64,000 bases of DNA from Desulfobacteraceae bacterium UBA5616. Lineage in GTDB: Bacteria; Desulfobacterota; Desulfobacteria; Desulfobacterales; UBA5616. Positions 17,005-62,804 of the stretch are shown here, piece after piece. The position numbers were made by a program, and so were the translations under genes. Numbering within the stretch: the stretch's first letter is position 1; every line of letters begins with the position of its first letter. The stretch spans positions 33,367 through 97,366 of the forward strand of contig DIKO01000092.1 in assembly GCA_002423615.1 (NCBI GenBank), given 5' to 3'. Below the pieces are notes generated by a model, which was given only the letters and a program-made list of their open reading frames with translations, was not told the DNA's origin and did not search any database.

Positions 17005-18432
17005 TTAATTCATTGTCTTATATTCGCTGTAATCCAAAAGCCGTTTCATCACCCCGGCGGCAATTTCAAAGGATGGAAAAACTGCGGTCTTGTGAGCCAC
17101 CAGGGTTTCCTCTACTTCCCTTCTCAGCGCGAAGAGCTGGGCATCGCCGAATGTTTCGAGAATCAGGTAGATTGGTTTTTCCAGCCACTCCTGTAATTTG
17201 GTCATGATGCGGACAAAATAATTCACCCCGACGCGTCCGGCATCCCTGTAGATAAAGCCCAGATGAAGCGCAAAAAACAAGGCGTCGATATGGGGATCTT
17301 CTTTCAAAAGTTCCATGAGTTTCTGGAAATTTTCCCTGCTTCTCAAGTGGGGTAAAATATCCAGCGGATTTCTGACGCTGCTTCCTTCCAAAGGAATGAC
17401 TTCCTGAAGTTTGGCAATGGATTTTTCCGACAGGTGCGGCACATGAAGCCCTGCTTTCTCGGCATGGTCCGTCATGGTAACCCCTCCTCCGCCTGCCCCT
17501 CCGAGCACTGCGATATTCGATCCCCTGGGAAGGGAGAGCCGTTTAACGGCGGAAATCGTGTAAATCATTTCTTCCATGGAATTGACCGGGATAATACCCG
17601 CCTGGCGGCACATGGACTGCCAGACATGAAAAGACCCTGCCATGGCCGCGGTGTGGGATTGGGTGGCCCTTGCGCCTCCTTCGGTCTGGCCTCCTTTCCA
17701 AACAACCAGAGGCTTAAGTGCGGATATTTTTTTTGCAGCGTCAAAGAATGCCCTGCCCTCGGTCAATCCTTCAAGGTAGGCAACGATGATTTCGATTTTA
17801 GGGTCTTCGGCCATGTAATTCAGATAATCATGGGCTTTTAGATCGCTGGCGTTTCCGAAGCTCACCACCTTGCTGAAAAACAACCCCTCTGAAGCACCCG
17901 ATGCAACCGACATCGTGGCCAGTTGGCCGCTTTGGGAAAACATGCCGATTTTGCCGATTTTATCGGGCATCTCGCTGTTCCAGGACAGTCCCCCTTCCGG
18001 ACAATACAGGCCCATACAATTCGGGCCGACGATCCGGATGCCGGCCATGCGGGCTTTTTCAACCAGTTTTTTTTCAACCTCCGCATCGGATGCTCTGCCG
18101 GTTTCGGTGAATCCGGCCGTAAGCAGATGGACGAATTTGACTTTTTTTTCCGCACAGGCGTCCATTACATCCAGGACCGCTGAAGCCGGCACGCAAAAAA
18201 TGACCAGATCGATGTCTCCGCGAATATCGCGGATCGTCCGATAGCATTTGTAACCGAGGATGTAATCCGCCGAGGGATGGACGGGGAAGATTTTTCCGTG
18301 AAAACTCTGTTTGATGCAGCCGTTGATGTAAGCGTTGCCGCTGGACCATACAAACCCGCGTTTCGTAGAAGACCCGACGACGGCTATGGACCTGGGATAA
18401 AACAAGTTATGTAAATCAGGCGCTGAAGTCAT
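17005..18432 (-). CDS. ADP-forming acyl-CoA synthetase alpha-type subunit (CoA-binding plus CoA-ligase flavodoxin domains)
   Basis: 475 aa. LFYPRSIAVVGSS CoA-binding N-terminus, RIVGPNCMG, FSQSGQL, and GGARATQSHTAAMAGS containing the phosphohistidine-loop His. Confidence 0.8.
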   Translation of the reverse strand: MTSAPDLHNLFYPRSIAVVGSSTKRGFVWSSGNAYINGCIKQSFHGKIFPVHPSADYILGYKCYRTIRDIRGDIDLVIFCVPASAVLDVMDACAEKKVKFVHLLTAGFTETGRASDAEVEKKLVEKARMAGIRIVGPNCMGLYCPEGGLSWNSEMPDKIGKIGMFSQSGQLATMSVASGASEGLFFSKVVSFGNASDLKAHDYLNYMAEDPKIEIIVAYLEGLTEGRAFFDAAKKISALKPLVVWKGGQTEGGARATQSHTAAMAGSFHVWQSMCRQAGIIPVNSMEEMIYTISAVKRLSLPRGSNIAVLGGAGGGGVTMTDHAEKAGLHVPHLSEKSIAKLQEVIPLEGSSVRNPLDILPHLRSRENFQKLMELLKEDPHIDALFFALHLGFIYRDAGRVGVNYFVRIMTKLQEWLEKPIYLILETFGDAQLFALRREVEETLVAHKTAVFPSFEIAAGVMKRLLDYSEYKTMN

Positions 18433-18706
18433 GTATCGTTCCTTTTTTTATGCATCTGCATCCGTTGGAAAGGTAATTGTTCCGTTGTTGTTGAACGCAA
18501 TCGATCCGAAATCGACCAGTCGGTAACATTTGTTCACATTCATTAAATTGTCAATCATAAATAAGCTGCGGCGTATAACATTATTCGGCTGTATTTTGTT
18601 TATTTGCATTCAGTGTTCAAATATATTATTAAATATGTGTAACCTACGCCCTTTCAAACCCCGGCGATGATTTCGATTGATTCTGATAAATCAAGGAGGT
18701 ACGCTG

Positions 18707-19507
18707 ATGTCGTTCGAGGAAATTATTTTTGAAAAGAAAAACCACGTTGCTTACATTACGCTGAATCGCCCCCAGGCCCGGAATGCCCTGACCATGAACA
18801 CCTATCGGGAACTTGAAACGGCATTAATGGATATCGATGCGGACCATGAGGTCCGGGTTGTGGTCATTACAGGGGCTGGTAAGGGATTCTGTTCCGGCGA
18901 CGACGTCAAACAGGTCATGCTGGATCCGGACCGCATTCGGGAACGGGAGGTACATGCCAGGCAGCAGGTCAGGGCCAAACCCACTCCGGCGGCAGCCCTT
19001 CTGATGAACATCAACAGGCCGGTCATCGCTGCGGTCAACGGCCCGGCCGTGGGATGGGGCATGGATCTTGCCCTGATGTGCGACATCCGCATCGCATCGG
19101 AAAACGCTTTTTTCGGAGAGATCTTCGTTCTTCGGGGCCTTGTTCCCGATATCGGGGGAATCCTTTGCCTGCCGCGGATCGTCGGACCTTCCAAGGCTTA
19201 CGAACTATTGTTTACGGGAGATGTGATCAATGCGGCCCAGGCCCTGGAAATTGGGCTGGTCAGCCGTGTCGTTCCCCATGAGGAGCTTATGGCCGCCGCT
19301 TCGGCGCTGGCCGAAAAAATAGCCGCAAATCCGCCCCTTGCAGTCAGAAGGATAAAGGAAGGCGTCAGAAGGAGCCTGGGATACAATGTAGACGCCATTG
19401 GCGAGTACATTACTTCATCTCTTGGGGTGCTGTTCCAGACCGATGACCATAAGGAAGGTGCGACCGCATTTATTGAAAAACGGTCTCCCGTATTCAAAGG
19501 CAAATAA
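18707..19507 (+). CDS. Enoyl-CoA hydratase/isomerase family protein
   Basis: MSFEEIIFEKKNHVAYITLNRPQARNAL, VITGAGKGFCSGDD, AAVNGPAVGWGMDLALMCDIR, EGATAFIEKRSPVFKGK. The AGGAGG before the Met at 18707 supports this start over the track start at 18677. Confidence 0.85.
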   Translation: MSFEEIIFEKKNHVAYITLNRPQARNALTMNTYRELETALMDIDADHEVRVVVITGAGKGFCSGDDVKQVMLDPDRIREREVHARQQVRAKPTPAAALLMNINRPVIAAVNGPAVGWGMDLALMCDIRIASENAFFGEIFVLRGLVPDIGGILCLPRIVGPSKAYELLFTGDVINAAQALEIGLVSRVVPHEELMAAASALAEKIAANPPLAVRRIKEGVRRSLGYNVDAIGEYITSSLGVLFQTDDHKEGATAFIEKRSPVFKGK

Positions 19508-19559: not shown

Positions 19560-21491
19560 TTATCCGATGATGTTCTCGATGTCCTCTTCTATTCTTTTTT
19601 CCCGGGGATGATCTTTGAAGTCCATGAAAATTTCCAGCTCCGTCCCACTGATGGAGGTGATTTTCAGGAAGGGATATTTTTTCCTGAACACATGCACCAT
19701 GGCCTCATTTTCCTTCAACACGGTTGCTTTAAACCCGATGTAATGGTTTTCCTTGGCGATGTTTTCAAGCTGATCGATCAGGTATGAGGCTATGCCCATA
19801 TTCTGGTACGCTTCGCTCACCACAAAGGCAATTTCCGCCCTGCCCTCATCTGATTCGGCGTATGACCCGATGGCCATGATCTCTTTGTGCCCCCCCTGCA
19901 GGACCAGTCCGATAAGAGACATATTTTTCCGATAGTCCACACTGGCCCAGTGTTTCTGCACCACTTCATGGGAAAAAGTCTTCATCCTGTAAAAGAATCT
20001 GAAATAAATGGTTTTATCCTGAAGTGAGTAAAAGAAATTCCGGTACCCGAATTCATCGGAAGGCAGCAACGGGCGGAACCCGACGGTTTTTCCGTTTTTC
20101 AGCGTATAGCTGGTTTTATAGTTTTCCAGGAATAACAGATCGTCCTGGGAAGGGGGAAGCTGGTCTCCGAAAATATAATGACGCTTTTTGGCAAACTGGA
20201 TCAGTTCATCCCTGAATTTGGGATGGGCGATCTGGGCGAGTTCCATCACCCGCTGATAGATGCTCTTTCCCTGAAGTTCGGCAATGCCGTACTCGGTAAC
20301 GACGAAATTGACATCGCCCCTGGTGGTGGCCACCCCTGCTCCCTCGCTCAAGTGGGAAACGATCCTGGATACCGTTCCGTTCTGGGCCGTTGAAGGAAGG
20401 GCGACAATGGAAAACCCTCCCTTGGACATGGCACTTCCCCGGAGATAATCCACCTGATCGCCGATACCGCTGTAAAACAGATATCCGACGGAGTCCGTGC
20501 AGATCTGTCCTGTCAGGTCGACCTCGAGAGCGGAGCTGATGGAAATAAGATTGTCATTCTGGGCGATAACATTGGGATTGTTCACATATTCCGAAGATCT
20601 GAAATAAAAAATGGGGTTATTATCCACATATCGATAGAGTGCTTCAGATCCCATGCAAAGGGATGCCACCACCCGCCCCGGAATATGATTTTTTTTCTTG
20701 TTGGTGATAACCTTTTTTTCCAGCAGAGGGACCATGGCATCGGTGATCAGCTGGGTATGGATACCTAGATTTTTCTTGTTGTCAAGGTGCTGGAGGATGA
20801 TATTGGGCAGGGTCCCGAAGCCGATCTGCAGGGTGGCGCCGTCGTCCACAAGCTGGGATACATAATGTCCGATTCGTCTGGCGACAACATTGTATTTGGT
20901 CAAGGTGGGCAAAGATTCCACGAGGGGTTCCTCATGGAGAACAAAGTAATCGATGTCATCCACATGCACGAAACTATCCCCCCAGGTTCTCGGAACCCTC
21001 GAGTTCACCTGGGCGATGACCATTTTGGCATTGGACATGCCGGCGCGGGTGATATCGATGGATACCCCCAGGCTGCAGTAACCGAATTTATCCGGAGGGC
21101 TCACCTGAATCAGAGCGACATCAATGCCGATGCGGTGGCTGTAGAATATTCTGGGAATCTGAGACAAATATGCGGGGATATAGTCTATCTTTCCTTCAAA
21201 GGCGGCCTTTCGCATTTCACGGCTGATAAAAAAAAGCTTCAAGGAAAAACGACGCAGAAAGGATGGTTCATCCACATATTTTGCAAGGGTAAACGACAGC
21301 ATCTGATAAACCATGATATCCTGCAGAGCCGGATCATTCACCATCGCATGGATCAATTGCTGGGGTTCACCGCAGCCGGTGCCGATAAAAACACGGCTGC
21401 CCCGGTTTATTTTTGAAACCGCCGCTTCAGGGCTCATGATTTTTTGGGGACAGTATTCATGCAAATTCATCTCGCTCTTCTCCACATCCAT
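19560..21491 (-). CDS. Fusion protein: acetyl-CoA hydrolase/transferase (4-hydroxybutyrate CoA-transferase-like) domain plus C-terminal Pat-type GNAT acetyltransferase domain
   Basis: 643 aa. The N-terminal ~440 aa (SPEAAVSKINRGSRVFIGTGCGEPQQL..., ISSALEVDLTGQ) match the CoA-transferase family I/AcH fold. The C-terminal ~170 aa (FRPLLPSDEFGYRNFFYSL...YFRFF...SH...DYRKNMSLIGL...AEIAFVVSEAYQNMGIASYL...) match the GNAT domain of Pat/Pka-type protein acetyltransferases. Confidence 0.75.
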   Translation of the reverse strand: MDVEKSEMNLHEYCPQKIMSPEAAVSKINRGSRVFIGTGCGEPQQLIHAMVNDPALQDIMVYQMLSFTLAKYVDEPSFLRRFSLKLFFISREMRKAAFEGKIDYIPAYLSQIPRIFYSHRIGIDVALIQVSPPDKFGYCSLGVSIDITRAGMSNAKMVIAQVNSRVPRTWGDSFVHVDDIDYFVLHEEPLVESLPTLTKYNVVARRIGHYVSQLVDDGATLQIGFGTLPNIILQHLDNKKNLGIHTQLITDAMVPLLEKKVITNKKKNHIPGRVVASLCMGSEALYRYVDNNPIFYFRSSEYVNNPNVIAQNDNLISISSALEVDLTGQICTDSVGYLFYSGIGDQVDYLRGSAMSKGGFSIVALPSTAQNGTVSRIVSHLSEGAGVATTRGDVNFVVTEYGIAELQGKSIYQRVMELAQIAHPKFRDELIQFAKKRHYIFGDQLPPSQDDLLFLENYKTSYTLKNGKTVGFRPLLPSDEFGYRNFFYSLQDKTIYFRFFYRMKTFSHEVVQKHWASVDYRKNMSLIGLVLQGGHKEIMAIGSYAESDEGRAEIAFVVSEAYQNMGIASYLIDQLENIAKENHYIGFKATVLKENEAMVHVFRKKYPFLKITSISGTELEIFMDFKDHPREKRIEEDIENIIG

Positions 21492-23104: not shown

Positions 23105-25180
23105 ATGGAAACCAAAATAGAAAAAATTCGAAACATCGGCATCAGCGCCCATATTGACGCCGGGAAAACCACGCTTACCGAAAGAATCCTCTTTTACACC
23201 CAGAAAATTCACTCTATTCATGATGTTAAGGGTAAAGACGGTGTCGGCGCGACCATGGATTTCATGGAGCTTGAAAAAGAGCGGGGTATTACCATCACTT
23301 CGGCGGCCACGAATATCAACTGGGACGGGTATGAGATCAACATCATCGATACGCCGGGGCATGTGGATTTCACCATTGAGGTCGAACGTTCCTTGAGGGT
23401 TCTGGACGGAGCAGTGCTGGTGCTGTGCTCCGTGGGCGGGGTTCAGTCCCAATCCATCACCGTGGACCACCAGATGGCCCGTTACGAAGTGCCTTGCCTG
23501 GCCTTTATCAATAAGTGCGACCGAAGCGGCGCCAATCCTTTCCGGGTGATTGATCAACTCAGAGAAAAGCTGGGTCATAATGCCGTCGCCCTGCAGCTGC
23601 CCATCGGACTGGAGGCGGATTTAACCGGTCTGGTGGATCTGGTGTCCATGAAAGCGATTTATTTTGACGGGGATAGCGGCGAAATTCTCCGTTGGGCGGA
23701 AATCCCCGAATCCATGATGCCTGAGGTTCGGGAAAGACGGGAGGCACTGGTTGATGCCGCCTCAATGTTTTCGGATGAGCTCATGGAAGCGGCCCTTGAA
23801 GGCGATATCCCCGAAGACCTGCTGATCGAGGGTATACGCAGGGGTGTTCTGAAGCGGGAACTGACTCCGGTTTTGATGGGTTCCGCCTATAAAAACAAAG
23901 GCGTTCAACCTCTCCTGAACGCCGTGACCAGTTACCTGCCCAATCCGTCCGAAGTAAAAAACCAGGCCCTGGATATGGACAACAACAAAGAAAATGTCAC
24001 ACTTTCCAGCAAGGCTGATGATCCTCTGGTGGCCCTGGCATTCAAACTCGAGGATGGTCAGTATGGACAGCTCACCTATATACGGGTTTATCAGGGGACT
24101 CTATTTCGAGGAGCTGCAGCCAAAAATGTCAGAACCGGCCAGAAATTTAAAATCGGCCGGGTGGTTCGCATGCATGCCGATATCATGGAAGAGATCCAAA
24201 CCATCCCTGCCGGTCAGATCGGGGCGCTTTTCGGAATCGACTGCGCATCCGGCGATACTTTTGCAAGCCCCGAGCTTAATTTGAGCATGATCTCCATGTT
24301 TGTCCCGGATCCCGTCATCTCACTGGCCATTATTCCCAAAGACAACAAGTCACAGATCAATATGTCCAAGGCATTGAACCGCTTCACCAAGGAGGACCCG
24401 ACCTTTAAAAGCTTCACCAACGAAGAGACCGGGGATACCATTATTTCCGGTATGGGTGAACTCCACCTTGAGGTTTATGTCGAACGCATGAGACGGGAAT
24501 ACAATGCTTCCGTTGAAACCGGTGCTCCAAGAGTGGCCTATCGTGAAACCATATCCAAACGCTCCGAATTTGATTACATCCATAAAAAGCAGACCGGCGG
24601 ATCGGGTCAGTACGCCCGTGTGGCCGGGTATATCGAACCCGTCGTGGGTGAAGAGTTCATTTTCGAAAACGAAGTAAAGGGGGGATCCGTTCCCACCCAG
24701 TATATTCCCGCCTGCGAAAAAGGATTCAGAAACTGCATGGTCAAGGGGCCCAAAATGGGGTTCCCTGTTTTCGGCGTCAAAGTTGTTTTAAACGATGGGG
24801 CATCACATGCCGTCGATTCTTCGGATATGGCGTTTCAGACGGCATCCCGCGCCGCATTTGTTGAAGCTTACGGAAAGGCCAAACCCGTCATTCACGAACC
24901 TATCATGAAGGTCGTCATTGAAACCCCGACGGAGTTTCAAGGTGCGGTCATGGGTTCTTTAAACCAGCGGCGGGGACTAATCGTTGGCTCCCAGGATGAA
25001 GGTACGTTCTCAATTATTGAAGCCCAGGTCCCCCTTTCAGAAATGTTCGGCTATTCGACCGTATTAAGATCGTTAACCCAGGGGCAGGCCCAGTTTACAA
25101 TGGAGTTCTTCATTTACAAACAAGCGCCCCAGTCCATCGTGGATGAATTGGCAAAAAACGCGATGAAAGAAAAAAAATAG
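23105..25180 (+). CDS. fusA: Elongation factor G paralog, mitochondrial/spirochaete-delta (spdEFG1/mtEFG1-like) type
   Basis: 691 aa. [97 protein letters not shown]. The [15 protein letters not shown] insert matches what I recall of mtEFG1. The gene is not in an rpsL-rpsG-fusA-tuf context. Confidence 0.85.
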
Positions 25181-25225
25181 CGCCTCCGGTGCGTAAAGGA
25201 ATCAATCCGACAAAGGAGAATATAA

Positions 25226-25921
25226 ATGTCAAGCCAAACCGTTATCATTGCGAACCCGTTTGCCCGACTTGGAAACAATGTTGAAGACATCATTGAAAAA
25301 GGAGGATTCGGTGCGGTTCTGGCCAGGGCCGGTGTTGGAAAAACAGCCCTTCTGGTCCAGTTGGCGCTGAATCACATGCTTAGAAACCGGAACGTTCTTC
25401 ACATCAGTTTAAAAGATCCCGTTGCCAAGATCAGCCTGTGGTACAAGGAAATATTCAACAACCTGGCCGAGCAGAACAAAGTGGGCAACGCCCAGGAGAT
25501 CTGGGAATCCCTGCTTCCCCATCGGTTTATCATGACCTTCAAGGTCGAAGGGTTCAGCGTGCCGAAACTGGAAGAGCGATTGACCGATCTTACGGAACAA
25601 AATGTCTTTTGTCCCGATCTGGTGATTATTGATGGACTTCCCTTTGATGAGAATGTGTCTGCCGTTTTGAACGATTTAAAGAAACTGCCGTGCCAAAAGA
25701 TGAGTTTCTGGTTCGCCGTCACCACCCATCGTCATGAAGCACCGGAAACATCGGCCATGCCGCCCCAGATGGTGCCCGTCGCGAACCTTTTCGACATCAT
25801 TATCCAGCTCCGTCCCCATGAAAGGATGATCCATGTGATATCGCTGAAAGGAAACACCTCGACGGACGAATCCCCGCTGATATTTGATCCCGCCGCCATG
25901 ATCCTCAAAGAAAAAAGCTGA
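25226..25921 (+). CDS. Small RecA/KaiC-superfamily P-loop ATPase-like protein, function unknown
   Basis: 231 aa. Walker A is LARAGVGKTALLVQLAL and Walker B-like is PDLVIIDGLPFD. It lies 45 nt downstream of the EF-G paralog on the same strand, preceded by AAAGGAG. Confidence 0.5.
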   Translation: MSSQTVIIANPFARLGNNVEDIIEKGGFGAVLARAGVGKTALLVQLALNHMLRNRNVLHISLKDPVAKISLWYKEIFNNLAEQNKVGNAQEIWESLLPHRFIMTFKVEGFSVPKLEERLTDLTEQNVFCPDLVIIDGLPFDENVSAVLNDLKKLPCQKMSFWFAVTTHRHEAPETSAMPPQMVPVANLFDIIIQLRPHERMIHVISLKGNTSTDESPLIFDPAAMILKEKS

Positions 25922-29542: not shown

Positions 29543-29581
29543 CTTTCCTCAATTTCTCGATGCCGGTCATCCGGTTTATGG

Positions 29582-30238: not shown

Positions 30239-30387
30239 ATCAAAATTCCTCTTGGAAACTGAGTAGACAGATAAATGCGCCTGCGACGGAAGTTCGGCTT
30301 AAAGCCCGATTGTTCGGCAGGTGCATTTCACCAATGATGCCGGATGAACAATCGGGATGGACAACAAAAAGGAATTCCCCGCTCAAG

Positions 30388-32061: not shown

Positions 32062-32149
32062 CGGTATTGCCGGGTATTGATTCTCAGCATTTGGTGCAAC
32101 ACGGATTTTAAACAAAATGTCGCCGTTCAGGCGGTAAACAAGGTACAGA

Positions 32150-38849: not shown

Positions 38850-38861
38850 GTCGCCTCCTGT

Positions 38862-44148: not shown

Positions 44149-44158
44149 AGGAATACCC

Positions 44159-51844: not shown

Positions 51845-51991
51845 ATGCTGAAAGTCCTGAAGCCCGGAATGATCCGCAACCCGAAGTTCGAATATGGTTG
51901 TCTCTGACCTGTTGAGAATCTGAATTCAACTATGCATGAAGTATTTGCTCCTGCTTTTTACAGGGATAAAAAAAGGTTGTCAAGAGAAATA

Positions 51992-52003
51992 GAACGATCG
52001 TTC
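51992..52003. promoter_or_regulatory. Perfect 12-bp palindrome GAACGATCGTTC abutting the etfBA promoter (candidate operator)
   Basis: Read directly from the sequence. It ends 9 nt upstream of the -35 TTGACA at 52013. It lies between divergent promoters: a minus-strand TTGACA at 51984-51979 serves the phosphatase gene. Confidence 0.4.
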
Positions 52004-52012
52004 GCTTTTCGG

Positions 52013-52041
52013 TTGACAGTGCTCTCAATTCTGTTTATAGT
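52013..52041 (+). promoter_or_regulatory. Near-consensus sigma70 promoter of etfBA
   Basis: TTGACA (52013-52018), 17-nt spacer, TATAGT (52036-52041), 84 nt upstream of the etfB ATG. Confidence 0.6.
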
Positions 52042-52124
52042 GCGGACATTTATTGGATAGGGAATTGCACTGATAATGTCCTCGAACCTTAATGGAAGCA
52101 TATGAGCTATTCTATTTTATTGAA

Positions 52125-52910: not shown

Positions 52911-52914
52911 AATT

Positions 52915-53929: not shown

Positions 53930-54709
53930 TTATGATTTCGCCATGTTTTCCGCCTGCAGGGCTGCTCCGAAGGCCGTAACGGCCTGGGGATCTTCCGGGG
54001 CTTCCAATTTGATGCCCAGGGTTGTTTCAATCCTTTTTACGAGTCCGATATCCAATGCGCCTCCACCCGTGAGGGCGCAGGGCGGTTCCATGCCGATGCG
54101 GTCGGCCAGGGTCGCTATTTTGGTCGCCAGGGCCTGGTGTACCCCGGCAATGATATCTTCCTTCGGGGTGCCTTCTGCAATTCTCGATACGGCTTCGGAT
54201 TCGCCGAATACGGCGCAGCTCGTTGTAAAGCCGACCGGATTTTTGGATTTCAGGGACAATGGACCGATTTCATCCATACTGACCTGCAGGACCCGGGCGA
54301 TCACCTGCAGGAATCTCCCGCTCCCGGAAGCGCATTTTTCACTGACCACAAAATTGATGATCTTTCCCTCGTCATTTATACGAATCACCTTGGACGACTG
54401 GCCCCCGATCTCGATCAGGGTTTTGGCATGGGGGAACAATTGATGGATACCCATGGCGCTGCAGGTCAGGTCGCTTACCTTGGAATCGGCGAACTTCACC
54501 CGATCCGAACCGCAACCCGTGGCAAATACGGAGGCGATGTCCGATCTTTTGAGATTCGACAGTTTCAAAATTTCGCCAAAAACCGTATCGGCGGCATTCT
54601 GAAAATTCGAGCCTGAAGCGGTCTTGTAAAAAAATAAAAGTTTTTCGCCCCTGCTGATCGCCATTTTGGTTGTAACCGAGCCCACGTCGATGCCGCCGTA
54701 CCAATCCAT
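53930..54709 (-). CDS. BadF/BadG/BcrA/BcrD-type ATPase subunit (259 aa) of a class-I benzoyl-CoA-reductase-like enzyme
   Basis: ASKHA fold: GGIDVGSVTTKMAI, IEIGGQSSKVI, LTGGGA. The cluster-ligating cysteines lie in SEKCASGSGRFLQ and TSCAVFGESE. Confidence 0.8.
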   Translation of the reverse strand: MDWYGGIDVGSVTTKMAISRGEKLLFFYKTASGSNFQNAADTVFGEILKLSNLKRSDIASVFATGCGSDRVKFADSKVSDLTCSAMGIHQLFPHAKTLIEIGGQSSKVIRINDEGKIINFVVSEKCASGSGRFLQVIARVLQVSMDEIGPLSLKSKNPVGFTTSCAVFGESEAVSRIAEGTPKEDIIAGVHQALATKIATLADRIGMEPPCALTGGGALDIGLVKRIETTLGIKLEAPEDPQAVTAFGAALQAENMAKS

Positions 54710-54737: not shown

Positions 54738-55580
54738 TTAAAAGACCCTCGCAGTTGTCAGTTTCCGTTCTTTTATCTTTATCGCCTTACCGCTTTCCAT
54801 AGCCTTCTCAACCAGTTCCTTTCCAAGAAGAGCCGCTCCCATGGCGCCGGTAATCAGGGGCTCCCGACAGATATAAACCGGCCTGCCCAGGTGGCTTTCA
54901 AGCGCTTTCACCATCCCGGTATTTTTTGCCACCCCTCCTGTGAACACGACGTCACCCTCGATTTTGAGCTTGGATGCCATCCGGAAAGCCCTTCCAGCAA
55001 TGGCCTCATGCAGACCTGCTATGATATCTTCGACGGGAATTCCTTCCGACAACTGAGAGACGACTTCCTGTTCAGCAAAAATGGTGCAGATACTGCTGAT
55101 TTTGACTTTGTTTCGGGCTTTTAAAGACAAAGGCCCCATGTCTTTGATATTGACGCCCAGTGTTTCGGCAATGACTTCCAGAAACCTTCCCGTGCCGGCG
55201 GCGCACTTATCGTTCATCACAAAATCCACAACCCTGTTGTTTGCGATTTTGATGCCCTTGGCATCCTGACCGCCGATATCAATCACCGTGCCGGCATTTG
55301 GAAAAAAATGCAGTACCCCTCTGGCATGGCATGAAATCTCCGTAATCTGTTTGTCCGCAAAGGGGACATTGATCCGTCCATAACCCGTTGCGACGACATA
55401 ATCCACTGCTTCAAATGGGATCCGGGCCTGCGCCAGGGCGTCTTCCATGACGATGTTGGCCAGATGTCGATGTTCGGGTCCGGTGGGCCCGATAACCTGG
55501 CCTCTTATTCCCTCGCTGTAGATAATCACCTTGGTCATGGTAGAGCCGATATCGATTCCGGCAAAATACTTCCCCTTCAC
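54738..55580 (-). CDS. BadF/BadG/BcrA/BcrD-type ATPase subunit (280 aa), a distinct paralog of the previous gene
   Basis: AGIDIGSTMTKVII, IDIGGQDAKGI, NDKCAAGTGRFLE, SSICTIFAEQE, FTGGVAKN. Confidence 0.8.
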   Translation of the reverse strand: MKGKYFAGIDIGSTMTKVIIYSEGIRGQVIGPTGPEHRHLANIVMEDALAQARIPFEAVDYVVATGYGRINVPFADKQITEISCHARGVLHFFPNAGTVIDIGGQDAKGIKIANNRVVDFVMNDKCAAGTGRFLEVIAETLGVNIKDMGPLSLKARNKVKISSICTIFAEQEVVSQLSEGIPVEDIIAGLHEAIAGRAFRMASKLKIEGDVVFTGGVAKNTGMVKALESHLGRPVYICREPLITGAMGAALLGKELVEKAMESGKAIKIKERKLTTARVF

Positions 55581-55646: not shown

Positions 55647-56804
55647 TTACGCGATAATTTCCAGAAACGCTTCCACTCTGTTTTTCAGCTGAGCTTCGGC
55701 GGCCATGGTGTATTCATGTTCCAGATACATGGCGGGAAGCCCGATTTTCTCAAAATACGCCTTTAAAGCGGGTACCTCATATCCATGGGTGTCACAGTAT
55801 TTGACGGATTGAAGCAAGATCCCGTCCACATGCCAGTCCCTTGCGAAATCTTTCAAATATCCGAATCTGGATTCCATTTCTTCTTCAAAGGTGGAGGAAG
55901 ATTCCCGGAATGTCCGGGGGCATTTAATTTCGGACAAATACCGCTTTACGATGCCGTCCATGGGATCACTCGTTGCTTCGACATCTGCCCAATAGTGGCG
56001 GGTTCCCACACAAATATCATCCATCACCACATGGGCGTTCAGGCTTTCAATCATCTGGATCAGGTTGGTTTCCGTAAGGGGGCTTCCCCACAGCATTAAT
56101 CTTGTATCCTTCTCCCCCGGCCCATTTCCCCTGGAAAGCGCTTCCTGGATGATCTCTTCCAGCATGATGGAGCCCTCCTCTATGGGCATGCACATCAGCG
56201 CAATCATAATTTCAAGGTTTTCGGCGCCGGACAACAGAGGGGGATTTTCTTTTCGGAGATCGTAAAGTTTCCGTACCAGCGCCCGTTGGCGGTTATGAAC
56301 CCTGATCTCTTGTTGAATTCGCTCCCGGTCTAAAGCGCGCCCCGTATACGCTTCCATGGCCTTTTGAAACATGATCAGCTTTTCCTTGAACTGCTCGAAG
56401 GAATTTTCCCGGACCACATGGGGCATATCAATGTAATGATGGAAAGGCAGCTTCAATTCATGTTCCCAGATACGGCAGAATTTTTCCTGGCAGTCACAGG
56501 AATGGGCCGTGACAAAACCTTCCATAAAATCGTATTTCCCCTTCATGGCCATGTCCAGACTCGAACGGATGATAGGGCAGACAATGGTGGGGATGCTGGA
56601 ATCCGCCTTGGTGATGGCCTCATTGATGCTCCCCTGCACCCGGAAGGGGACGAAATCCATGCCGGTTATCAGTTCCAACGGAGGATAGGAGCAATAGTAA
56701 CCCATGATTTTTTTTCCTTCGGCCTTTAATTCCCTGGCTCTTAGCCCCCGGTCTTCATATATTTTCCTTGCTTTGGCAAAGCCGTGTAAACTCGCTGTTG
56801 TCAT
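55647..56804 (-). CDS. BcrC/BzdN/HgdB-like subunit (2-hydroxyacyl-CoA dehydratase/benzoyl-CoA reductase family), 385 aa
   Basis: Family recognised from overall pattern and conserved Cys positions (YCSYPPLELI, CPIIRS, HSCDCQ, DTHGYE). It sits between the large subunit and the ATPase genes. Confidence 0.7.
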   Translation of the reverse strand: MTTASLHGFAKARKIYEDRGLRARELKAEGKKIMGYYCSYPPLELITGMDFVPFRVQGSINEAITKADSSIPTIVCPIIRSSLDMAMKGKYDFMEGFVTAHSCDCQEKFCRIWEHELKLPFHHYIDMPHVVRENSFEQFKEKLIMFQKAMEAYTGRALDRERIQQEIRVHNRQRALVRKLYDLRKENPPLLSGAENLEIMIALMCMPIEEGSIMLEEIIQEALSRGNGPGEKDTRLMLWGSPLTETNLIQMIESLNAHVVMDDICVGTRHYWADVEATSDPMDGIVKRYLSEIKCPRTFRESSSTFEEEMESRFGYLKDFARDWHVDGILLQSVKYCDTHGYEVPALKAYFEKIGLPAMYLEHEYTMAAEAQLKNRVEAFLEIIA

Positions 56805-58479: not shown

Positions 58480-59808
58480 ATGAGCAAGAATCTGGTATCC
58501 ATCGTCAAATATGAAAAACCCTATGAATCCGTCCGAAAAGCCGTTGAATTGGCCGGGGGTCTGGACCATCTTCCGTCCAAGGCCAAAGTGTTCATCAAAC
58601 CCAATATCGTCTTCTGGACCAAGGCTGTGGTTTTTCCCAAATGGGGCGTCATCACGACATCCAGAGTTATCGAAGATATCGTGGTTATGCTCAAGGAAAG
58701 AGGCATCGATGATATCACCATCGGGGAAGGCATGGTGCTGAGTGAATCCAAGGACAAGGAAACTCCGGCCCACGCATTCGAATACCTGGGTTACAATACA
58801 CTGAAGAAACGGTACGGCGTCAAGGCGATGAATGTTTTTGACGGTGATATGGAAAAGGTGGATCTTGGAGACGGGGTTGAACTGACCTTCGGCGCTGAAA
58901 TTATCCACAGTGATTTTGTGGTGGACATTCCCGCCATGAAAACACACAATCAAACTGTCGTGAGTCTGGGAATTAAGAACCTGAAAGGCATGATCGACTT
59001 AAAATCCCGAAAAATCTGCCATAACGCAGACCCCAGCAGGGATCTGAACTTTCACGTCGCGAGGCTCGCGGACAAAATGCCGCCCATGCTGACCATCATC
59101 GACGGCATCTACACGCTTGAAAAAGGGCCTTCCTTTGACGGACGCATGAAAAGAAGCAATATTCTCATCGCCTCATCGGATGTTCTCTCGGCGGATATGG
59201 TGGGCGCAAAGATCCTCGGATATGAGCCGTCCCAGGTCCCCCATCTGGTCTTTGCGGCGGGAAACCGCAAACGGCCGCATGATTTGTCGGATGTGGAAGT
59301 CGTGGGTGAAAAAATCGAGGACCTTCAGGACTTCCATAAAAGCGATTTCGAGTACATTGAAGACGACAAGGGCTGTATGCCCGCCGCTCTGAAGAAAAGC
59401 GGCATTGAAGGGTTGTACTACCGGAAATTCGACCTGTCACTTTGCACCTACTGTTCCGGAACCAACGGCATGATCCTGACCGCCATCCGCAGCGCCTGGA
59501 AAGGAAACAAATGGGATGACGTCGAGGTTCTGACCGGAAAGCAGAAGAAACCCACCCCGGGTATGTCCAAAACCATCCTGGTGGGAAAATGCATGTATGA
59601 AGCCAACAAGGACCATCCCGACATCAAGGAAATGATCGCCATCAAGGGATGCCCTCCCCAGCCGAAAAACATCATCAAAGCCCTTCAGCAAGCCGGCATC
59701 GAAGTCGATCCCACGATTTTCGACCACGCTGAAATGGCACCCGGCCTTCTCATGAGCCGTTATGCGGGAAACCCCGAATTTGAAGAATCCTTTTTTCAGA
59801 TCGCTTGA
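58480..59808 (+). CDS. DUF362 domain protein with a Cys-rich C-terminal extension
   Basis: 442 aa. The N-terminal VFIKPNIV...TSRVIEDIVVMLKERGIDDITIGEG...MKTHNQTVVSLGIKNLKG is DUF362-like. The C-terminal ~110 aa carry CTYC...GKC...KGCPP. AGGAGG lies upstream. Confidence 0.7.
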   Translation: MSKNLVSIVKYEKPYESVRKAVELAGGLDHLPSKAKVFIKPNIVFWTKAVVFPKWGVITTSRVIEDIVVMLKERGIDDITIGEGMVLSESKDKETPAHAFEYLGYNTLKKRYGVKAMNVFDGDMEKVDLGDGVELTFGAEIIHSDFVVDIPAMKTHNQTVVSLGIKNLKGMIDLKSRKICHNADPSRDLNFHVARLADKMPPMLTIIDGIYTLEKGPSFDGRMKRSNILIASSDVLSADMVGAKILGYEPSQVPHLVFAAGNRKRPHDLSDVEVVGEKIEDLQDFHKSDFEYIEDDKGCMPAALKKSGIEGLYYRKFDLSLCTYCSGTNGMILTAIRSAWKGNKWDDVEVLTGKQKKPTPGMSKTILVGKCMYEANKDHPDIKEMIAIKGCPPQPKNIIKALQQAGIEVDPTIFDHAEMAPGLLMSRYAGNPEFEESFFQIA

Positions 59809-59852: not shown

Positions 59853-59890
59853 CCGATTAACCTCTGCAAGGTTTTAAATCGGAGGTGGAC

Positions 59891-61315
59891 ATGCAAAAGC
59901 CCATCATTGAGGAGCTTAAGCCTCTTTTTCTTCCCGAATCCATCGCCATTATCGGCGCCTCCAACACCGACGGAAAATGGGGAAACATGATGGTCACCCG
60001 TCCGGTTCAATCCGGTTACAGGGGCCGCATTTACCCCATCAACCCCAAGGAAAAAACGATTTACGGCCTTAAGGCCTACCCGAGCATAGGCGATGTACCC
60101 GATGCCGTGGATCTGGCCATTTTCACCATACCCGCTGAAATGGTTCCTTCCGCCATGGAAGCGTGCGTGAAAAAAGGGGTCCGGGCCGGGGTGATTATTT
60201 CCGCGGGTTTTGCCGAAACCGGCCCAAAGGGGGAAAAACTTCAGAACGAAACCGCCCGTATCGCCCGAAACGGCGGGATTCGTTTCATCGGTCCCAACTG
60301 CATGGGGTTCTGGAGTTCCACCATCCGGCTGAACACGGCCTTCCAATTCATGCCCAAACCCGGCGGCATTTCATTCGTGTCCCAGAGCGGCACCATGGGC
60401 GGATATCTCCTTGAAACGGCCAACAACAAGGGATACGGCTTCAATTCATTTTTAAGTGTCGGAAACCAGGCGGATTTGTCCATGGCCGATTATGTCGAAT
60501 ACCTGGGCGAGGACCCCATGACCAAGGTCATCGTGCTCTATATCGAGGGCCTTAAGAATGCCGGCCGTTTTATGGAAAATGCCGCAAAGGTCATCCGGAA
60601 GAAACCCATCATCGTTTACAAGGCCGGACGGACCGAAAGCGGGTCAAGGGCCACCATGAGTCATACCGCTTCCATCGCCGGTTCGGACACGGTATTTGAA
60701 GCGGCCTGCCGGCAGGTGGGAATCATCCGGACCTACGACGTCATTCACGCCTTTGACCTGGCCGAAGCCCTTTCTAAACAACCCCTTCCCGGGGGAAACC
60801 GTGTGGCCATCGTTTCCGGCGGGGGCGGGCACTGCGTGGTGTCCACCGATGCGTGCGGCGTTCTGGGTCTGGAAGTTCCGGAGCTTGATAAAAAAACCAG
60901 TGAAAAGATACACAAACTGCTCCTGCCCCATGCCCCGTTCCCCAAAAACCCCATTGACATGGCCGCCGACCCGAGGCTGGATACGGTCACCAAAATATTG
61001 TCCATTCTGGCGGAAGATCCCCATATCGACATCATCATGGCCACGGCCCCGTTTTTCAGAGATATAACCGAGCCGAAAATTATTCGGAAACTATTGGATA
61101 CGGTTGTGGCCCTGTCGGAAATTCCCCATCAGTTCGGCAAACCCCTGCTTGCCATGACCCACCGAAGCCGGATGCAGGGAATTTTTTTCGAAATCATGAA
61201 AAACAAGGGGATTCCTTTTTATGAATTCCCTGAAGAAGCAGCCCGGGCGGCCTATGGATTGTTCCGGTATTCGGAAATCCGAAAAAGGTTCGCGTCTTCT
61301 CCGGAAGCCTCTTAA
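59891..61315 (+). CDS. ADP-forming acyl-CoA synthetase alpha-type subunit (second paralog)
   Basis: LFLPESIAIIGAS, RFIGPNCMG, VSQSGTM, SGSRATMSHTASIAGS (His loop). The ATG at 59891 lies 5 nt after GGAGG; the track GTG at 59885 overlaps the RBS. Confidence 0.8.
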   Translation: MQKPIIEELKPLFLPESIAIIGASNTDGKWGNMMVTRPVQSGYRGRIYPINPKEKTIYGLKAYPSIGDVPDAVDLAIFTIPAEMVPSAMEACVKKGVRAGVIISAGFAETGPKGEKLQNETARIARNGGIRFIGPNCMGFWSSTIRLNTAFQFMPKPGGISFVSQSGTMGGYLLETANNKGYGFNSFLSVGNQADLSMADYVEYLGEDPMTKVIVLYIEGLKNAGRFMENAAKVIRKKPIIVYKAGRTESGSRATMSHTASIAGSDTVFEAACRQVGIIRTYDVIHAFDLAEALSKQPLPGGNRVAIVSGGGGHCVVSTDACGVLGLEVPELDKKTSEKIHKLLLPHAPFPKNPIDMAADPRLDTVTKILSILAEDPHIDIIMATAPFFRDITEPKIIRKLLDTVVALSEIPHQFGKPLLAMTHRSRMQGIFFEIMKNKGIPFYEFPEEAARAAYGLFRYSEIRKRFASSPEAS

Positions 61316-61325
61316 CCGCCAGTCT

Positions 61326-62804
61326 TCAAGAGTTTCGGCGGTCCCGGGACAGGTAGTAATCCGCAACCCGGCGAAGCACCGAAAATGCCTGCCCTCCGCT
61401 CTCGAAGCAGGGGATGCCGTGGTCCGTGTAAAATTTACGGGCCTTTAATTTGCCTTCTTCGACGGGAAGATGATCCGGATCCGATGAGATTTCCGGGATG
61501 ACCACTACCAGGGGTTTCCGGGTTCGCTGAAAAATTTCCCGGGCCGCGGGTACGATTTTCCTGTGGAACTCGAAATTTTCCGGATTGAAACCCGGATTTT
61601 TCCCCTCTTCACGGGTGAACGTGCTTAAAACATAGAAGAGAAGCTGATACAGAACCAGAAAATCGATGTTATCCTTCCCGGCCATGGCTTCCATGATGGG
61701 GATCATTACCGCAGGCGGCATTCCGGGATTTGCCAGATCCGCCGGATTACCAGCAGCGCCACCGGAAGGGGGCAAGAGTTTTTTCATCATATCAATGGTT
61801 TCAGGGTCCAGCACCGGAATTTCAAATCCGTGGACCGACGCCGCATCAAGCGCCTCAACGCAGCGTAACCCGCCCCCGGCCAGAACACCGGCGCCTTTTC
61901 CACTAAATTCATCCAGAAGACAGAAAGCCATCATACAGTCACTTAAATCCTTAATGTCCCCTGCCGCGGTCGCCCCTGCCGACTTGACCGCCGCTTCCCA
62001 GGTTTTTCTCGATCCTGCCATGGACCCGGTATGGCCGATGGTACCCCGTCTTCCCTGTTCGGTCAGTCCTCCCTTATGAATGACCACGGGTTTTTTTGCC
62101 GCGCAGGCTTTCAGGGCTTTAAAAAAAGAAGCGCCGTCCTTCACCCCCTCCAGGTATGCGCCCACAACCCGGGTGTTTTCATCCTGCTCGAAATATCGCA
62201 GAAGATCGACCACATCGACATCACTCCCATTGCCGTAACTCACCAGAACGGAAAACCTTACACCCCTGCCCTGCCCCATGTTGACGATATCACAGGCGCC
62301 GCCGCCGCTTTGGGAAATAAATCCCGCTGATCCGCTTTCCCGGGAAAAATCAACCCCCGGCAAGAGTGTCAGGCCGCCGGCCGGGCAGTAAATGCCGAAA
62401 CAATTGGGGCCCACGATCCGCATGCCGGTTTTTTGCGCAAGGTCGATCAACTCGGATTCCAGTTTTTCTCCTGATTCTCCGGCTTCCCTGAACCCCGCGG
62501 ACAGGATTTCCACGCCTTTTACTCCCTTTTCAGCGCAAGCCTTTACAGCGGGGAGCACAAAAGCACCGGGGGTTGTAATTATCGCCAGGTCGACGGGATC
62601 CGGTACGGCCGTGATATCCGGGAACGAATACAATCCCTGGATCCGGGTTTCTTTCGGGTTGATGGGAAAAAGTTTCCCTTTAAATCCGAACCGCATTAAA
62701 TTTTCCAGGATTCTTCCGCCGAATTTTGCCGTATCGTTGGATGCACCGATAACAGCGACGCTTTCCGGCATAAAAATGTGATTCAATGGATGATCGTTCA
62801 TCAT
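61326..62804 (-). CDS. ADP-forming acyl-CoA synthetase alpha-type subunit (third paralog)
   Basis: 492 aa. IFMPESVAVIGAS, RIVGPNCFG, ISQSGGG, QGRRGTIGHTGSMAGS. It is convergent with the previous gene, with stops 10 nt apart. AGGAG lies 2 nt before the ATG. Confidence 0.8.
   Translation of the reverse strand: MMNDHPLNHIFMPESVAVIGASNDTAKFGGRILENLMRFGFKGKLFPINPKETRIQGLYSFPDITAVPDPVDLAIITTPGAFVLPAVKACAEKGVKGVEILSAGFREAGESGEKLESELIDLAQKTGMRIVGPNCFGIYCPAGGLTLLPGVDFSRESGSAGFISQSGGGACDIVNMGQGRGVRFSVLVSYGNGSDVDVVDLLRYFEQDENTRVVGAYLEGVKDGASFFKALKACAAKKPVVIHKGGLTEQGRRGTIGHTGSMAGSRKTWEAAVKSAGATAAGDIKDLSDCMMAFCLLDEFSGKGAGVLAGGGLRCVEALDAASVHGFEIPVLDPETIDMMKKLLPPSGGAAGNPADLANPGMPPAVMIPIMEAMAGKDNIDFLVLYQLLFYVLSTFTREEGKNPGFNPENFEFHRKIVPAAREIFQRTRKPLVVVIPEISSDPDHLPVEEGKLKARKFYTDHGIPCFESGGQAFSVLRRVADYYLSRDRRNS

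Follow-up and report, generated by a model that had tools for sequence, protein, structure and literature searches.

We analyzed a stretch of 64,000 nucleotides (the window) from contig DIKO01000092.1 of Desulfobacteraceae bacterium UBA5616, in which the interval 17005-62804 is crowded with genes for acyl-CoA enzymes: two pairs of family III CoA-transferases (CoTs), five acyl-CoA dehydrogenases (ACADs), separate subunits of an ADP-forming acyl-CoA synthetase (ACD), and a cassette resembling ATP-dependent benzoyl-CoA reductase (BCR). An earlier note, made from the sequence alone, had described the interval as a mosaic catabolic island whose duplicated modules together form a pathway. Our results instead favor the view that this is probably a vertically inherited, colinear chromosomal neighborhood of separable modules, and neither a mobile island nor a single pathway operon.

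All open reading frames (ORFs) of the window with 100 aa or more were listed; 57 non-overlapping ORFs were scanned against Pfam, and key ORFs against NCBIfam. Each gene class named in the earlier inventory was found at its position by Pfam, and CoA-thioester enzymes accounted for 21 of the 39 interval genes compared with 1 of the 15 genes of the left flank (Fisher p=0.0013); the enrichment of the interval for acyl-CoA enzymes is real. Among ORFs of 100 aa or more anywhere in the window, Pfam recognized no thiolase, 3-hydroxyacyl-CoA dehydrogenase or glycyl-radical domain, in agreement with the note. The same contig (~125 kb) was also found in an oil-sands-tailings culture metagenome (JGI 3300002220 'MLSBCLC'); further occurrences are in JGI 3300000558, SRR636569 and one ENA assembly. 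The source is an uncultured bacterium of the sulfate-reducer type, and the nearest genomes are metagenome-assembled genomes (MAGs) of uncultured Desulfobacteraceae/Desulfobacterales, with Desulfatitalea at ~69%.

Gene order and borders of the interval

Synteny was assessed by mapping all window proteins by tblastn onto fetched loci (designated L followed by a number). Close relatives (70-85% identity) were colinear with the window. L012 and L009 carry the order TetR–DUF7064–hyp–AcrB–HlyD–ACAD-alpha1/beta1–CoT-alpha1/beta1–MBL–hypAB–ACAD-beta2/alpha2–nitroreductase–ACD-beta, and L005 and L006 the order AcrB–hyp–DUF7064–TetR–fifth ACAD–histidine phosphatase–etfBA–four BCR-like genes–DUF362–ACD-alpha2–ACD-alpha3. 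Among these close relatives hypAB, xth, nth and the cytochrome c3 gene were equally well kept in place, and since housekeeping genes are conserved in place too, gene adjacency is little informative on function at 70-85% identity. At ~64% identity, L011 and L019 were compact, with the order ACD-alpha2–(TPR)–hyp–CoT-alpha1/beta1–hypAB–ACAD-beta2/alpha2–nitroreductase–ACD-beta–(M48)–cytochrome c3–nth–xth, and were devoid of the BCR-like, etf, TetR and RND blocks.

Contacts between individual modules were likewise compared. The xth, nth and cytochrome c3 genes adjoin the ACD-beta operon in L011; hypB/hypA invariably separate the CoT pair from the ACAD-alpha2/beta2 operon (L009, L011, L012, L019 and L054); orthologs of a small secreted protein adjoin the CoT pair in L011 and L019, and AcrB in L005, L006 and L012; and the ACD-alpha2 ortholog adjoins the CoT pair in L011 and L019. 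Beside the BCR-like cassette, DUF362, ACD-alpha2 and ACD-alpha3 were kept in L005, L006 and L069 only. The backbone consists of xth, nth and cytochrome c3 (28748-30954, minus strand, with cytochrome c3 at 30388; Pfam), the ACD-beta–nitroreductase–ACAD-alpha2/beta2 operon, hypBA (35371-36389, minus strand; hydrogenase Ni insertion; Pfam), CoT-beta1/alpha1, the small secreted protein and, further along, ACD-alpha2. Lineage-specific additions are the MBL hydrolase, ACAD-alpha1/beta1 together with the RND pump, and a ~12-kb block at 48.0-59.8 kb that holds the TetR operon, etfBA, the BCR-like cassette and DUF362; further additions are the second CoT pair and, on the left, ACD-alpha1–crotonase–Cat1-GNAT.

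The genes of the interval lie on both strands in at least eight transcription units, separated by xth, nth, hypAB, the RND pump and others. The claim that these genes together form a pathway was not borne out: the core found at ~64% identity is without the BCR-like, etf, TetR and RND blocks, the contexts of the cassette differ, and the operator described below is unique to one promoter. Within L009, an extra ACAD alpha/beta pair is present in four fragments (4364-6793), and a YiiD_C/DUF4442 thioesterase-like gene is inserted between the two CoT genes (11227-11673); L009 also has an AMP-ligase. These gene fragments and insertions show ongoing gain and decay of modules.

We also examined the borders of the interval. 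GC and GC3 were 0.500 and 0.582 in the interval and 0.511 and 0.591 in the housekeeping flank, with a flat GC profile. No direct (att-like) repeats flank the interval, and Pfam detected no integrase among the window ORFs. To the left lies a tRNA-Leu gene (anticodon TAA; 16182-16269, minus strand), the 5' end of which is turned toward the interval and the 3' end away from it; besides this tRNA, the 64 kb gave no match to an Rfam family or riboswitch. To the right, a 359-aa remnant of an IS66-family transposase (62826-63905, minus strand; Pfam) matches profile positions 3-138 of 284 only. Beyond this remnant the same contig (L069) continues with two radical-SAM genes, an LplA-type ligase, a glyoxalase, another family III CoT and a molybdopterin oxidoreductase. 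In the relative L005 (GCA_046483495.1), ACD-alpha3 directly abuts the two radical-SAM genes and LplA, with no insertion sequence (IS) between them. Because this junction is uninterrupted in L005 and its order continues on the window contig, the IS66 remnant was inserted into a gene order that is otherwise conserved, and is not, as had been supposed, the end of an island. The designation of the interval as an island likewise fails, given a composition that equals that of the flank, no flanking repeats, no tRNA 3'-end geometry, and synteny that crosses IS66. The housekeeping genes said to interrupt the modules (xth, nth, hypAB and a fusA paralog) are indeed present, but hypAB, xth and nth belong to the order conserved in relatives, which undercuts the notion of an island. 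The word mosaic remains apt for what we take to be a chromosomal and vertical mosaic.

The first 5600 nt of L069, which lie past position 64000 of the window, encode the family III CoT, a tandem-glyoxalase-domain protein, a Fer4 protein and the molybdopterin oxidoreductase; a molybdopterin oxidoreductase also adjoins a CoT pair in L070.

CoA-transferase, synthetase and dehydrogenase pairs

The two CoT pairs are CoT-alpha2 (26096-27382) and CoT-beta2 (27394-28686) on the plus strand (Pfam CoA_transf_3, 1e-88 and 6e-98), and CoT-beta1 (37632-38849) and CoT-alpha1 (38862-40082) on the minus strand (Pfam). All-against-all BLASTP matched the gene at 26096 with that at 38862, and 27394 with 37632, in both cases at 36% identity; ACAD genes were matched in the same manner, 32920 with 41480 (36%) and 34196 with 40186 (43%). 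The members within each adjacent CoT or ACAD pair are only 28-30% identical. Since identity across pairs exceeds identity within pairs, each pair unites an alpha with a beta gene, and the two couples of a kind are ancient paralogs of each other. Thus, the duplicated two-gene modules described earlier are real, and their paralogy is ordered.

An alignment-based scan with one genome per species recovered 57 CoT loci; an earlier genome scan with a single ACAD query had returned no matches. In nearly every one of the 57 loci, which belong to Desulfobacterota, Binatia, Actinobacteria and Alphaproteobacteria, alpha and beta lie side by side, and a heteromeric, obligate pair of CoA-transferases is supported at the sequence level. 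The subunits BbsE and BbsF of succinyl-CoA:(R)-benzylsuccinate CoA-transferase (9FN0) were among the top solved relatives of the CoTs (162 and 156 bits), and similarity to BbsEF was no higher than that to YfdW, SUGCT or the uncharacterised CaiB/BaiF protein 4ED9. CoT-alpha2 is without an acidic residue at the alignment position (read without reference numbering) where CoT-alpha1, CoT-beta1 and CoT-beta2 have a nearby Asp, and there may be one catalytic subunit per pair. In L106, a CoT pair with 41-44% identity adjoins a BCR-like operon. The alphaproteobacterial and actinobacterial orthologs of the pair (39-46% identity) sit with GntR, thioredoxin-reductase-like, double-hot-dog, ECH, thiolase and FadB genes; a transfer of substrate from these orthologs was considered and rejected, as they are too distant and too different in context.

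The ACD is encoded by three alpha genes and one beta gene. ACD-alpha1 (17005-18432, minus strand) has the CoA_binding_2 and Succ_CoA_lig domains of the alpha subunit of an ADP-forming acyl-CoA synthetase (Pfam), and is 31-36% identical to ACD-alpha2 (59885-61315, plus strand; Pfam) and ACD-alpha3 (61326-62804, minus strand; Pfam). ACD-beta (ATP-grasp_5; 31384-32061, plus strand; Pfam) lies in the backbone operon. Among 26 more distant Desulfobacterota loci, 12 have one or two ACD-alpha genes flanking the CoT pair, and ACD-alpha1-like genes stand in tandem beside CoT pairs in distant Desulfobacterota. A nitroreductase, in some cases of the Fer4-nitroreductase type, recurs in 6 of these loci, and one annotated distant Desulfobacterota locus with CoT and ACD adds an MBL protein, a MarR regulator and a molybdopterin oxidoreductase. 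As judged from these neighborhoods, the most conserved predicted functional association is that of the CoT pair with the ACD, and not that of the CoT with the reductase.

The ACAD pairs lie in two operons. In the backbone operon (31384-35314, plus strand; Pfam), ACD-beta is followed by the nitroreductase (32150-32824), ACAD-alpha2 (32920-34119) and ACAD-beta2 (34196-35314), with intergenic gaps of 76-95 nt and an order that is kept in L009, L011 and L054. The second operon (36751-42676, minus strand) comprises ACAD-alpha1 (41480-42676), ACAD-beta1 (40186-41397, with a likely start at 41349), CoT-alpha1, CoT-beta1 and the MBL hydrolase (36751-37533, minus strand; Pfam), which has the motif HWHEDH; its gaps are 12-103 nt, and its order is kept in L009, L012, L017 and L054. 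The idea of a duplicated four-gene unit, ACAD-alpha/beta plus CoT-alpha/beta, was discarded, as the ancestral order of L011 and L019 pairs CoT-1 with ACAD-2 across hypAB. Because of this pairing the two-gene modules have separate histories, as the earlier note had said.

In NCBIfam, the alpha ACADs best matched the large subunit PimC and the beta ACADs the small subunit PimD, at 252 and 237 bits compared with equivalog cut-offs of 624 and 653, respectively. Among solved structures, the closest were Tcur3483 and ChsE4-ChsE5 (4X28), both of them alpha2beta2 steroid ACADs. The catalytic Glu ('FER', at the IVD/LCAD position) is present in ACAD-alpha1 and ACAD-alpha2, and ACAD-beta1 and ACAD-beta2 align without an acidic residue at either catalytic position. 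Such a combination, of one subunit that is catalytic and one that has no base, characterizes alpha2beta2 ACADs such as ChsE4-ChsE5 and FadE28-29. The proposal that the ACAD pairs are heteromeric is therefore supported at the sequence level, by the PimC/PimD matches, by the Tcur3483 and ChsE4-ChsE5 relatives and by a Glu confined to alpha, and the pairs are predicted to be of the alpha2beta2 type.

To the left of these modules lie ACD-alpha1, a crotonase (enoyl-CoA hydratase ECH1; 18707-19507, plus strand; Pfam ECH_1, 9e-64), and a gene (19560-21491, minus strand) for a Cat1-type (butyryl-CoA:acetate) family I CoA-transferase fused to a C-terminal GNAT domain (Pfam AcetylCoA_hydro, AcetylCoA_hyd_C and Acetyltransf_1). 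The top NCBIfam matches of ECH1 were PRK09245 and an EchA19-like family, both under their cut-offs. A steroid-degradation reading was rejected: only the ACAD type and this sub-cut-off EchA19-like crotonase resemble such systems, and no ring-degradation genes are present. The Cat1-GNAT protein scored 240 bits with TIGR03948 (cut-off 675), its C-terminus resembles the Pat acetyltransferase, and a homolog with 67% identity lies at 18014-19903 of L008, 7 kb from a BCR-like core pair. The regulatory domain of Pat is ACD-like. By analogy with Pat, Cat1-GNAT might act not in catabolism but as a protein acyltransferase that senses acyl-CoA.

We propose that these enzymes make up a first unit, in which the heteromeric family III CoA-transferase would load CoA from a donor thioester onto an acid, probably a dicarboxylic or bulky one. 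The two-subunit ACD, with substrate-specific alpha subunits sharing the single beta subunit, would either regenerate the donor thioester with ATP or harvest ATP from product thioesters. The alpha2beta2 ACAD, with its catalytic alpha and base-less beta subunit, would make a 2-enoyl-CoA, and the second CoT and ACAD pairs (36-43% identity) may serve a second substrate or a later intermediate. Hydration by the local crotonase is possible; for 3-hydroxyacyl-CoA dehydrogenase and thiolase, genes in another part of the genome would be needed. It is plausible that the substrate is cyclic, branched or dicarboxylic, and the family resemblances (PimCD, BbsEF, SUGCT, and mesaconate and glutarate transferases) point, by analogy, to dicarboxylic or bulky acids.

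The BCR-like cassette and the TetR unit

The BCR-like cassette is encoded on the minus strand (Pfam, NCBIfam) by genes for a large HGD-D subunit (56836-58173/58191), a small HGD-D subunit (55647-56804), ATPase 2 (54738-55580) and ATPase 1 (53930-54709); a DUF362 gene (58480-59808, plus strand; Pfam) lies beside it. The two BcrAD_BadFG ATPases (259 and 280 aa) are 37% identical to each other. Among proteins of known structure, the small subunit (385 aa) matched BzdN best (8S02_B, 148 bits), followed by the double-cubane protein DCCP (114 bits) and then HadC, and the large subunit matched HadB with 76.8 and BzdO with 73.3 bits; its NCBIfam score against HadB was 111 bits. All NCBIfam scores against the Bzd and Bcr equivalogs stayed far under the cut-offs (BzdN, 162 vs 453.8 bits; BzdO, 89.7 vs 448.6; BzdQ, 175 vs 380.2).

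In BzdN, the [8Fe-9S] cluster is held by Cys36/73/100/263/293/327, and in BzdO the [4Fe-4S]-OH2 cluster is held by Cys95/128/380 next to the catalytic residues Trp46, Glu65 and His131; the double cubane has been lost in 2-hydroxyacyl-CoA dehydratases (HADs) (PMC11971306). Residues C37/75/102/264/294/336 of the small subunit align with all six BzdN cysteines, and are invariant in 29 homologs. In the large subunit (450-residue numbering, the full ORF minus one), C100/C141/C385, W54 and E71 match the BzdO cysteines, Trp46 and Glu65; across 62 family members neither the three Cys nor the Glu varies, and 57 of the 62 have the Trp. The position of His131, on the other hand, is Arg in 60 of the 62 clade members (R144 in the window protein). 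The large subunit also has an 'SCRT' motif as in MbdO. Because the double-cubane and BzdO-type ligands are kept and there are two distinct ATPase genes, the enzyme is of the class I BCR type rather than a dehydratase, and the earlier description of it as BCR-like holds, with all six BzdN cysteines present. Benzoyl-CoA is nevertheless an unlikely substrate, because the protein falls in a clade of its own, in which the acid/base site is altered.

A metagenome scan yielded 80 loci with the same order, large subunit–small subunit–ATPase 2–ATPase 1. Only in the three closest relatives are etfBA, DUF362 and ACD-alpha genes found beside the cassette. At least 15 loci of a group with 50-54% identity have SDR, SCPx-thiolase and DUF35 genes on one side of the cassette, and on the other MaoC followed by a B12-binding protein with an MCM-like mutase, an ACAD and MeaB; loci with this B12-mutase linkage include L093, L099, L105, L109, L111, L112, L115, L131, L142 and L144. 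We found no described pathway in the literature in which a B12 acyl-CoA mutase and an ATP-dependent reductase of the BCR type occur together. A family III CoT precedes the cassette in ~8 loci, and a crotonase is nearby in 7. In Desulfocicer niacini the cassette is preceded by a 3-hydroxyacyl-CoA dehydrogenase, and in L008 it follows SDR–thiolase–DUF35. Thus, the thiolase and dehydrogenase missing from the window are physically linked to this reductase family elsewhere, which suggests a beta-oxidation-like setting. Taken together, these contexts make the BCR-like cassette a portable one.

We propose the cassette as a second unit, an ATP-driven, double-cubane two-electron reductase that would act on a CoA thioester other than benzoyl-CoA, and in which Arg would replace the His acid/base catalyst. 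Our literature search found no characterised counterpart of this clade, or of the CoT/ACAD/ACD set. In their source records, members of the cassette are currently named benzoyl-CoA reductase or 2-hydroxyacyl-CoA dehydratase. The Arg-type clade is widespread in sediments, and such misnaming inflates estimates of anaerobic aromatic degradation; the Arg-type cassette is the part of the interval most worth following up.

Adjacent to the cassette is a group of genes under a predicted TetR regulator. On the minus strand (Pfam) are genes for a histidine phosphatase (51137-51844), the fifth ACAD (49819-51009), TetR (49093-49785) and a DUF7065/DUF7064 protein (48024-49064), an operon that is kept in L005, L006 and L012. 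The fifth ACAD matched human ACAD11 (2wbi) with 285 bits, and has a catalytic Asp ('FDGPDE') and an HCMR motif with an upstream Arg ('GRIHHCMR'). This combination of catalytic Asp, HCMR and upstream Arg defines ACAD10, ACAD11 and LvaC, which eliminate phosphate from 4-phosphoacyl-CoA (PMC12440821). By these motifs, the fifth ACAD is of the predicted ACAD10/11/LvaC type. No APH/LvaA-type kinase domain was found in the window (Pfam), and the set in the TetR operon may represent a kinase-less or alternative bacterial 4-hydroxyacyl-CoA route. The DUF7064/7065 protein shows 60-77% identity across Desulfobacterales and Pseudomonadales; in L152, a contig of gammaproteobacterial type, its homolog neighbors an APH kinase, MBL, SDR and a crotonase.

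Divergent from this operon are etfB (52092-52910) and etfA (52882-53895) on the plus strand (Pfam). EtfB is nearer to non-bifurcating and EtfA nearer to bifurcating ETFs, so that the two point in opposite directions; the top PDB match of EtfA was CarE, and the top NCBIfam matches of the fifth ACAD and the ETF were acryloyl-CoA reductase subunits. The divergent promoter contains an operator-like block of inverted repeats, TGTCAA…GAACGATCGTTC…TTGACA (51978-52018), in which GAACGATCGTTC is a perfect palindrome within a spacer of 247 nt. The block of ~45 nt is kept in L005 and L006, and the remaining spacer has diverged. The window holds one perfect site, with none upstream of the other modules, and sites with 2 mismatches occur at chance level. 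We infer that the predicted TetR operator couples etfBA to the TetR operon only. A third unit would accordingly be one in which the TetR repressor controls etfBA, the ACAD10/11/LvaC-type enzyme, the histidine phosphatase and the DUF7064 protein through this one shared operator. A bacterial ACAD10/11-type enzyme that is under predicted TetR control with etfBA, and has no kinase partner in the window, is a testable object.

Several other genes of the window complete the inventory. The RND pump, NUDIX, Smr and AAA proteins, the histidine phosphatase, the DUF7064/7065 protein and the small secreted protein are present in addition to the genes listed earlier. The pump consists of an HlyD-type adaptor (from 42958) and AcrB (44159-47269; together 42958-47269, plus strand; Pfam). 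A single in-frame TAA (46247-46249) splits the AcrB gene into ORFs of 696 and 338 aa; AcrB is intact in relatives (1030-1036 aa), and the TAA could mark a pseudogene, stem from a sequencing error, or be a nonsense mutation specific to the strain. The small secreted protein (143 aa; 47358-47789, minus strand) has an N-terminal signal-like helix and no Pfam match. Between these convergent genes, a near-perfect 23-nt inverted repeat (96%, 1-nt loop) at 47292-47338 probably terminates transcription in both directions. At 23105-25921, immediately ahead of the second CoT pair and on its strand, are genes for an EF-G paralog (691 aa) and for a small ATPase of the AAA_25/KaiC-like kind, with gaps of 45 and 174 nt; BipA- and RF3-like GTPases occupy a comparable position in L011. 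A second crotonase lies outside the interval, at 6941-7750, after the TRAP genes dctPQM.

Alternative readings and comparison with known systems

Several findings weigh against the view that the interval is a neighborhood of separable modules. All blocks stay together in close relatives (at least 70% identity), so that a functional link between them is possible, though hypAB, xth and nth stay as well. Family III CoA-transferases (~8 loci) and crotonases (7) recur beside BCR-like cassettes, which fits a tie between the first and the second unit. The JAWODC MAG has its CoT/ACAD block on one contig and its BCR block on another, but a break in the assembly, rather than a true separation, may account for this. 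In addition, the substrate classes suggested above draw on family analogies (PimCD, BbsEF and the alpha2beta2 steroid ACADs), and EtfB and EtfA point to opposite types of ETF.

Among the alternatives, the one that survives best, although we consider it unlikely, is that the interval encodes one coherent, novel pathway, distinct from the thn pathway of naphthalene degradation, for an alicyclic or dicarboxylic acid (e.g., of the naphthenic-acid type), with thiolase and 3-hydroxyacyl-CoA dehydrogenase (HADH) supplied in trans. The co-location of all blocks in at least four related genomes is consistent with this alternative, as are the recurrence of family III CoT and ECH genes beside BCR-like cassettes in other lineages, a conserved active-site Arg that could bind a second carboxylate, ACADs that resemble the dicarboxyl-CoA type PimCD, and the oil-sands-tailings source. 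Yet this co-location is confined to genomes in which unrelated housekeeping genes are equally conserved, the compact core of L011 and L019 is without the reductase, etf and TetR blocks, and the modules share no regulator site, differ in orientation and have promoter regions of their own. A more specific version appears less probable still, namely that the cassette is a new ATP-dependent, double-cubane aryl-/enoyl-CoA reductase whose Arg binds a second carboxylate or other anionic group, and which acts together with the CoTs, the ACADs and the split ACD on naphthenic-acid-like acids.

The earlier note had likened the interval to thn, the lower naphthalene pathway, and had seen in it one catabolic pathway for a cyclic or branched carboxylate. 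We compared the two by gene composition, as described for thn in PMC12016498 and PMC11659651. In culture N47 and strain NaphS2, thn (for tetrahydronaphthoyl-CoA) is one co-transcribed operon of 22 genes, ThnA–ThnY, that encodes the reductase ThnB-E, the ferredoxin ThnF, the MaoC dehydratases ThnH/I, the thiolases ThnJ/V, the HADH ThnK, the crotonases ThnA/L/M/U, the amidohydrolase ThnN, the homotetrameric ACADs ThnO/T, the family I transferase ThnP and the AtuA-like lyases ThnQ/S (PMC12016498, PMC11659651). What the interval has in common with thn, and what speaks for the likeness, is a reductase (class I BCR-like here), ACADs, crotonases, a Cat1-type family I transferase (the family of ThnP), and a hydrocarbon-degrading Desulfobacterota setting, here a culture source. 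Most components that define thn, however, are without a counterpart in the 64 kb. Pfam found no Fer4 gene in the window, no MaoC_dehydratas, Thiolase_N/C or 3HCDH domain in its ORFs of at least 100 aa, and no amidohydrolase or AtuA/DUF1446 domain in the window, where the sole metallohydrolase is the MBL-fold protein. Conversely, thn has no family III CoA-transferase pairs, alpha2beta2-type ACADs, ACD or etf, all of which are present in the window. ThnO is homotetrameric, in contrast to the alpha2beta2-type ACAD pairs; the Cat1 homolog is fused to GNAT and lies 33 kb from the reductase; and outside close relatives the BCR-like cassette is unlinked to the other modules. With ferredoxin, MaoC, thiolases, HADH, amidohydrolase and AtuA lyases absent, and the genes not forming a single operon, the resemblance to thn does not stand, and we judge a thn-like pathway very improbable.

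No better placed is a reductive, fermentative module of the had/fld/car type, in which a family III CoT, a 2-hydroxyacyl-CoA dehydratase, an enoyl-CoA reductase made of ACAD and EtfBA, and an ATP-yielding ACD would cooperate. Every component family is present, the large HGD-D subunit is marginally nearer to HadB than to BzdO (76.8 vs 73.3 bits, with 111 bits for NCBIfam HadB), and CarE and acryloyl-CoA reductase subunits are the top matches of EtfA in the PDB and of the fifth ACAD and the ETF in NCBIfam. These similarities are countered by the six double-cubane cysteines, all of which are kept here and are lost in HADs (PMC11971306), by two different ATPase genes as in BCRs instead of one activator, and by an ACAD beside etfBA that is of the ACAD10/11 type, with a catalytic Asp, and not of the Bcd/CarC type, EtfB moreover being nearer to non-bifurcating ETFs. 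We find such a module hard to uphold. Finally, it is scarcely credible that the interval is a horizontally acquired genomic island, with the tRNA-Leu gene 740 nt to its left and the IS66 fragment at its right end as borders, when its composition and codon usage are those of the flank, neither direct repeats nor an integrase are present, the tRNA 3' end is directed away from it, the gene order past IS66 is exactly that of relatives without IS66, and the interior order is kept across several related genomes.

The interpretation as a neighborhood of separable modules has practical consequences. The interval should not be annotated as a marker of naphthalene or polycyclic aromatic hydrocarbon degradation in tailings-pond metagenomes. 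In addition, the heteromeric family III CoT recurs in Desulfobacterota together with the split ACD and the alpha2beta2-type ACADs, a combination through which dicarboxylic or bulky acids may quite generally enter metabolism.

Each unit resembles some characterised system in part. The cassette shares with the class I benzoyl-CoA reductase BzdNOPQ of the Azoarcus/Aromatoleum type (8S02; PMC11971306) and with the 3-methylbenzoyl-CoA reductase MbdONQP (9G87) two HGD-D core subunits and two different BcrAD_BadFG ATPases, whereas ferredoxin, dienoyl-CoA hydratase, Had and Oah genes are not found near the window cassette. In contrast to known ACAD10/11/LvaC systems, the neighbors of the fifth ACAD are the histidine phosphatase, TetR, the DUF7064 protein and etfBA, with no APH kinase in the window. 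The 'Magic' benzene cluster of ORM2 shares only the class III CoA-transferase pair (PMC13101534). The sole feature in common with the bbs/bns clusters of arylsuccinate beta-oxidation is that of two adjacent family III pairs of the BbsEF type, in a window that has no BbsAB thiolase/DUF35, BbsCD dehydrogenase or glycyl-radical synthase domain. The ACAD pairs resemble ChsE4-ChsE5 of Mtb (4X28), Tcur3481/3483 of T. curvata (6WY8/9) and PimCD of R. palustris in having adjacent genes for a large and a small ACAD, with the Glu in the large one only. Unlike these systems, the window has no steroid ring-degradation genes and no PimA, PimB or PimF, and the partners of its ACADs are family III CoA-transferases and ACD subunits; the pim operon shares only the PimCD-like ACADs, below cut-off.

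The closest parallels for the arrangement of the synthetase come from archaea and from the ASCT/SCS cycle. In archaeal two-subunit ACDs, such as the ACS isoenzymes of Pyrococcus furiosus, several alpha subunits pair with few beta subunits, and the ASCT/SCS cycle couples a CoA-transferase to an ADP-forming synthetase. The window likewise has separate genes for alpha (CoA-binding plus ligase-CoA) and beta (ATP-grasp), with alpha paralogs that outnumber beta, and the pairing of a CoA-transferase with an ADP-forming synthetase recurs in many Desulfobacterota loci. In contrast to the archaeal ACDs, the context here is bacterial, and the beta gene is embedded in an ACAD operon.

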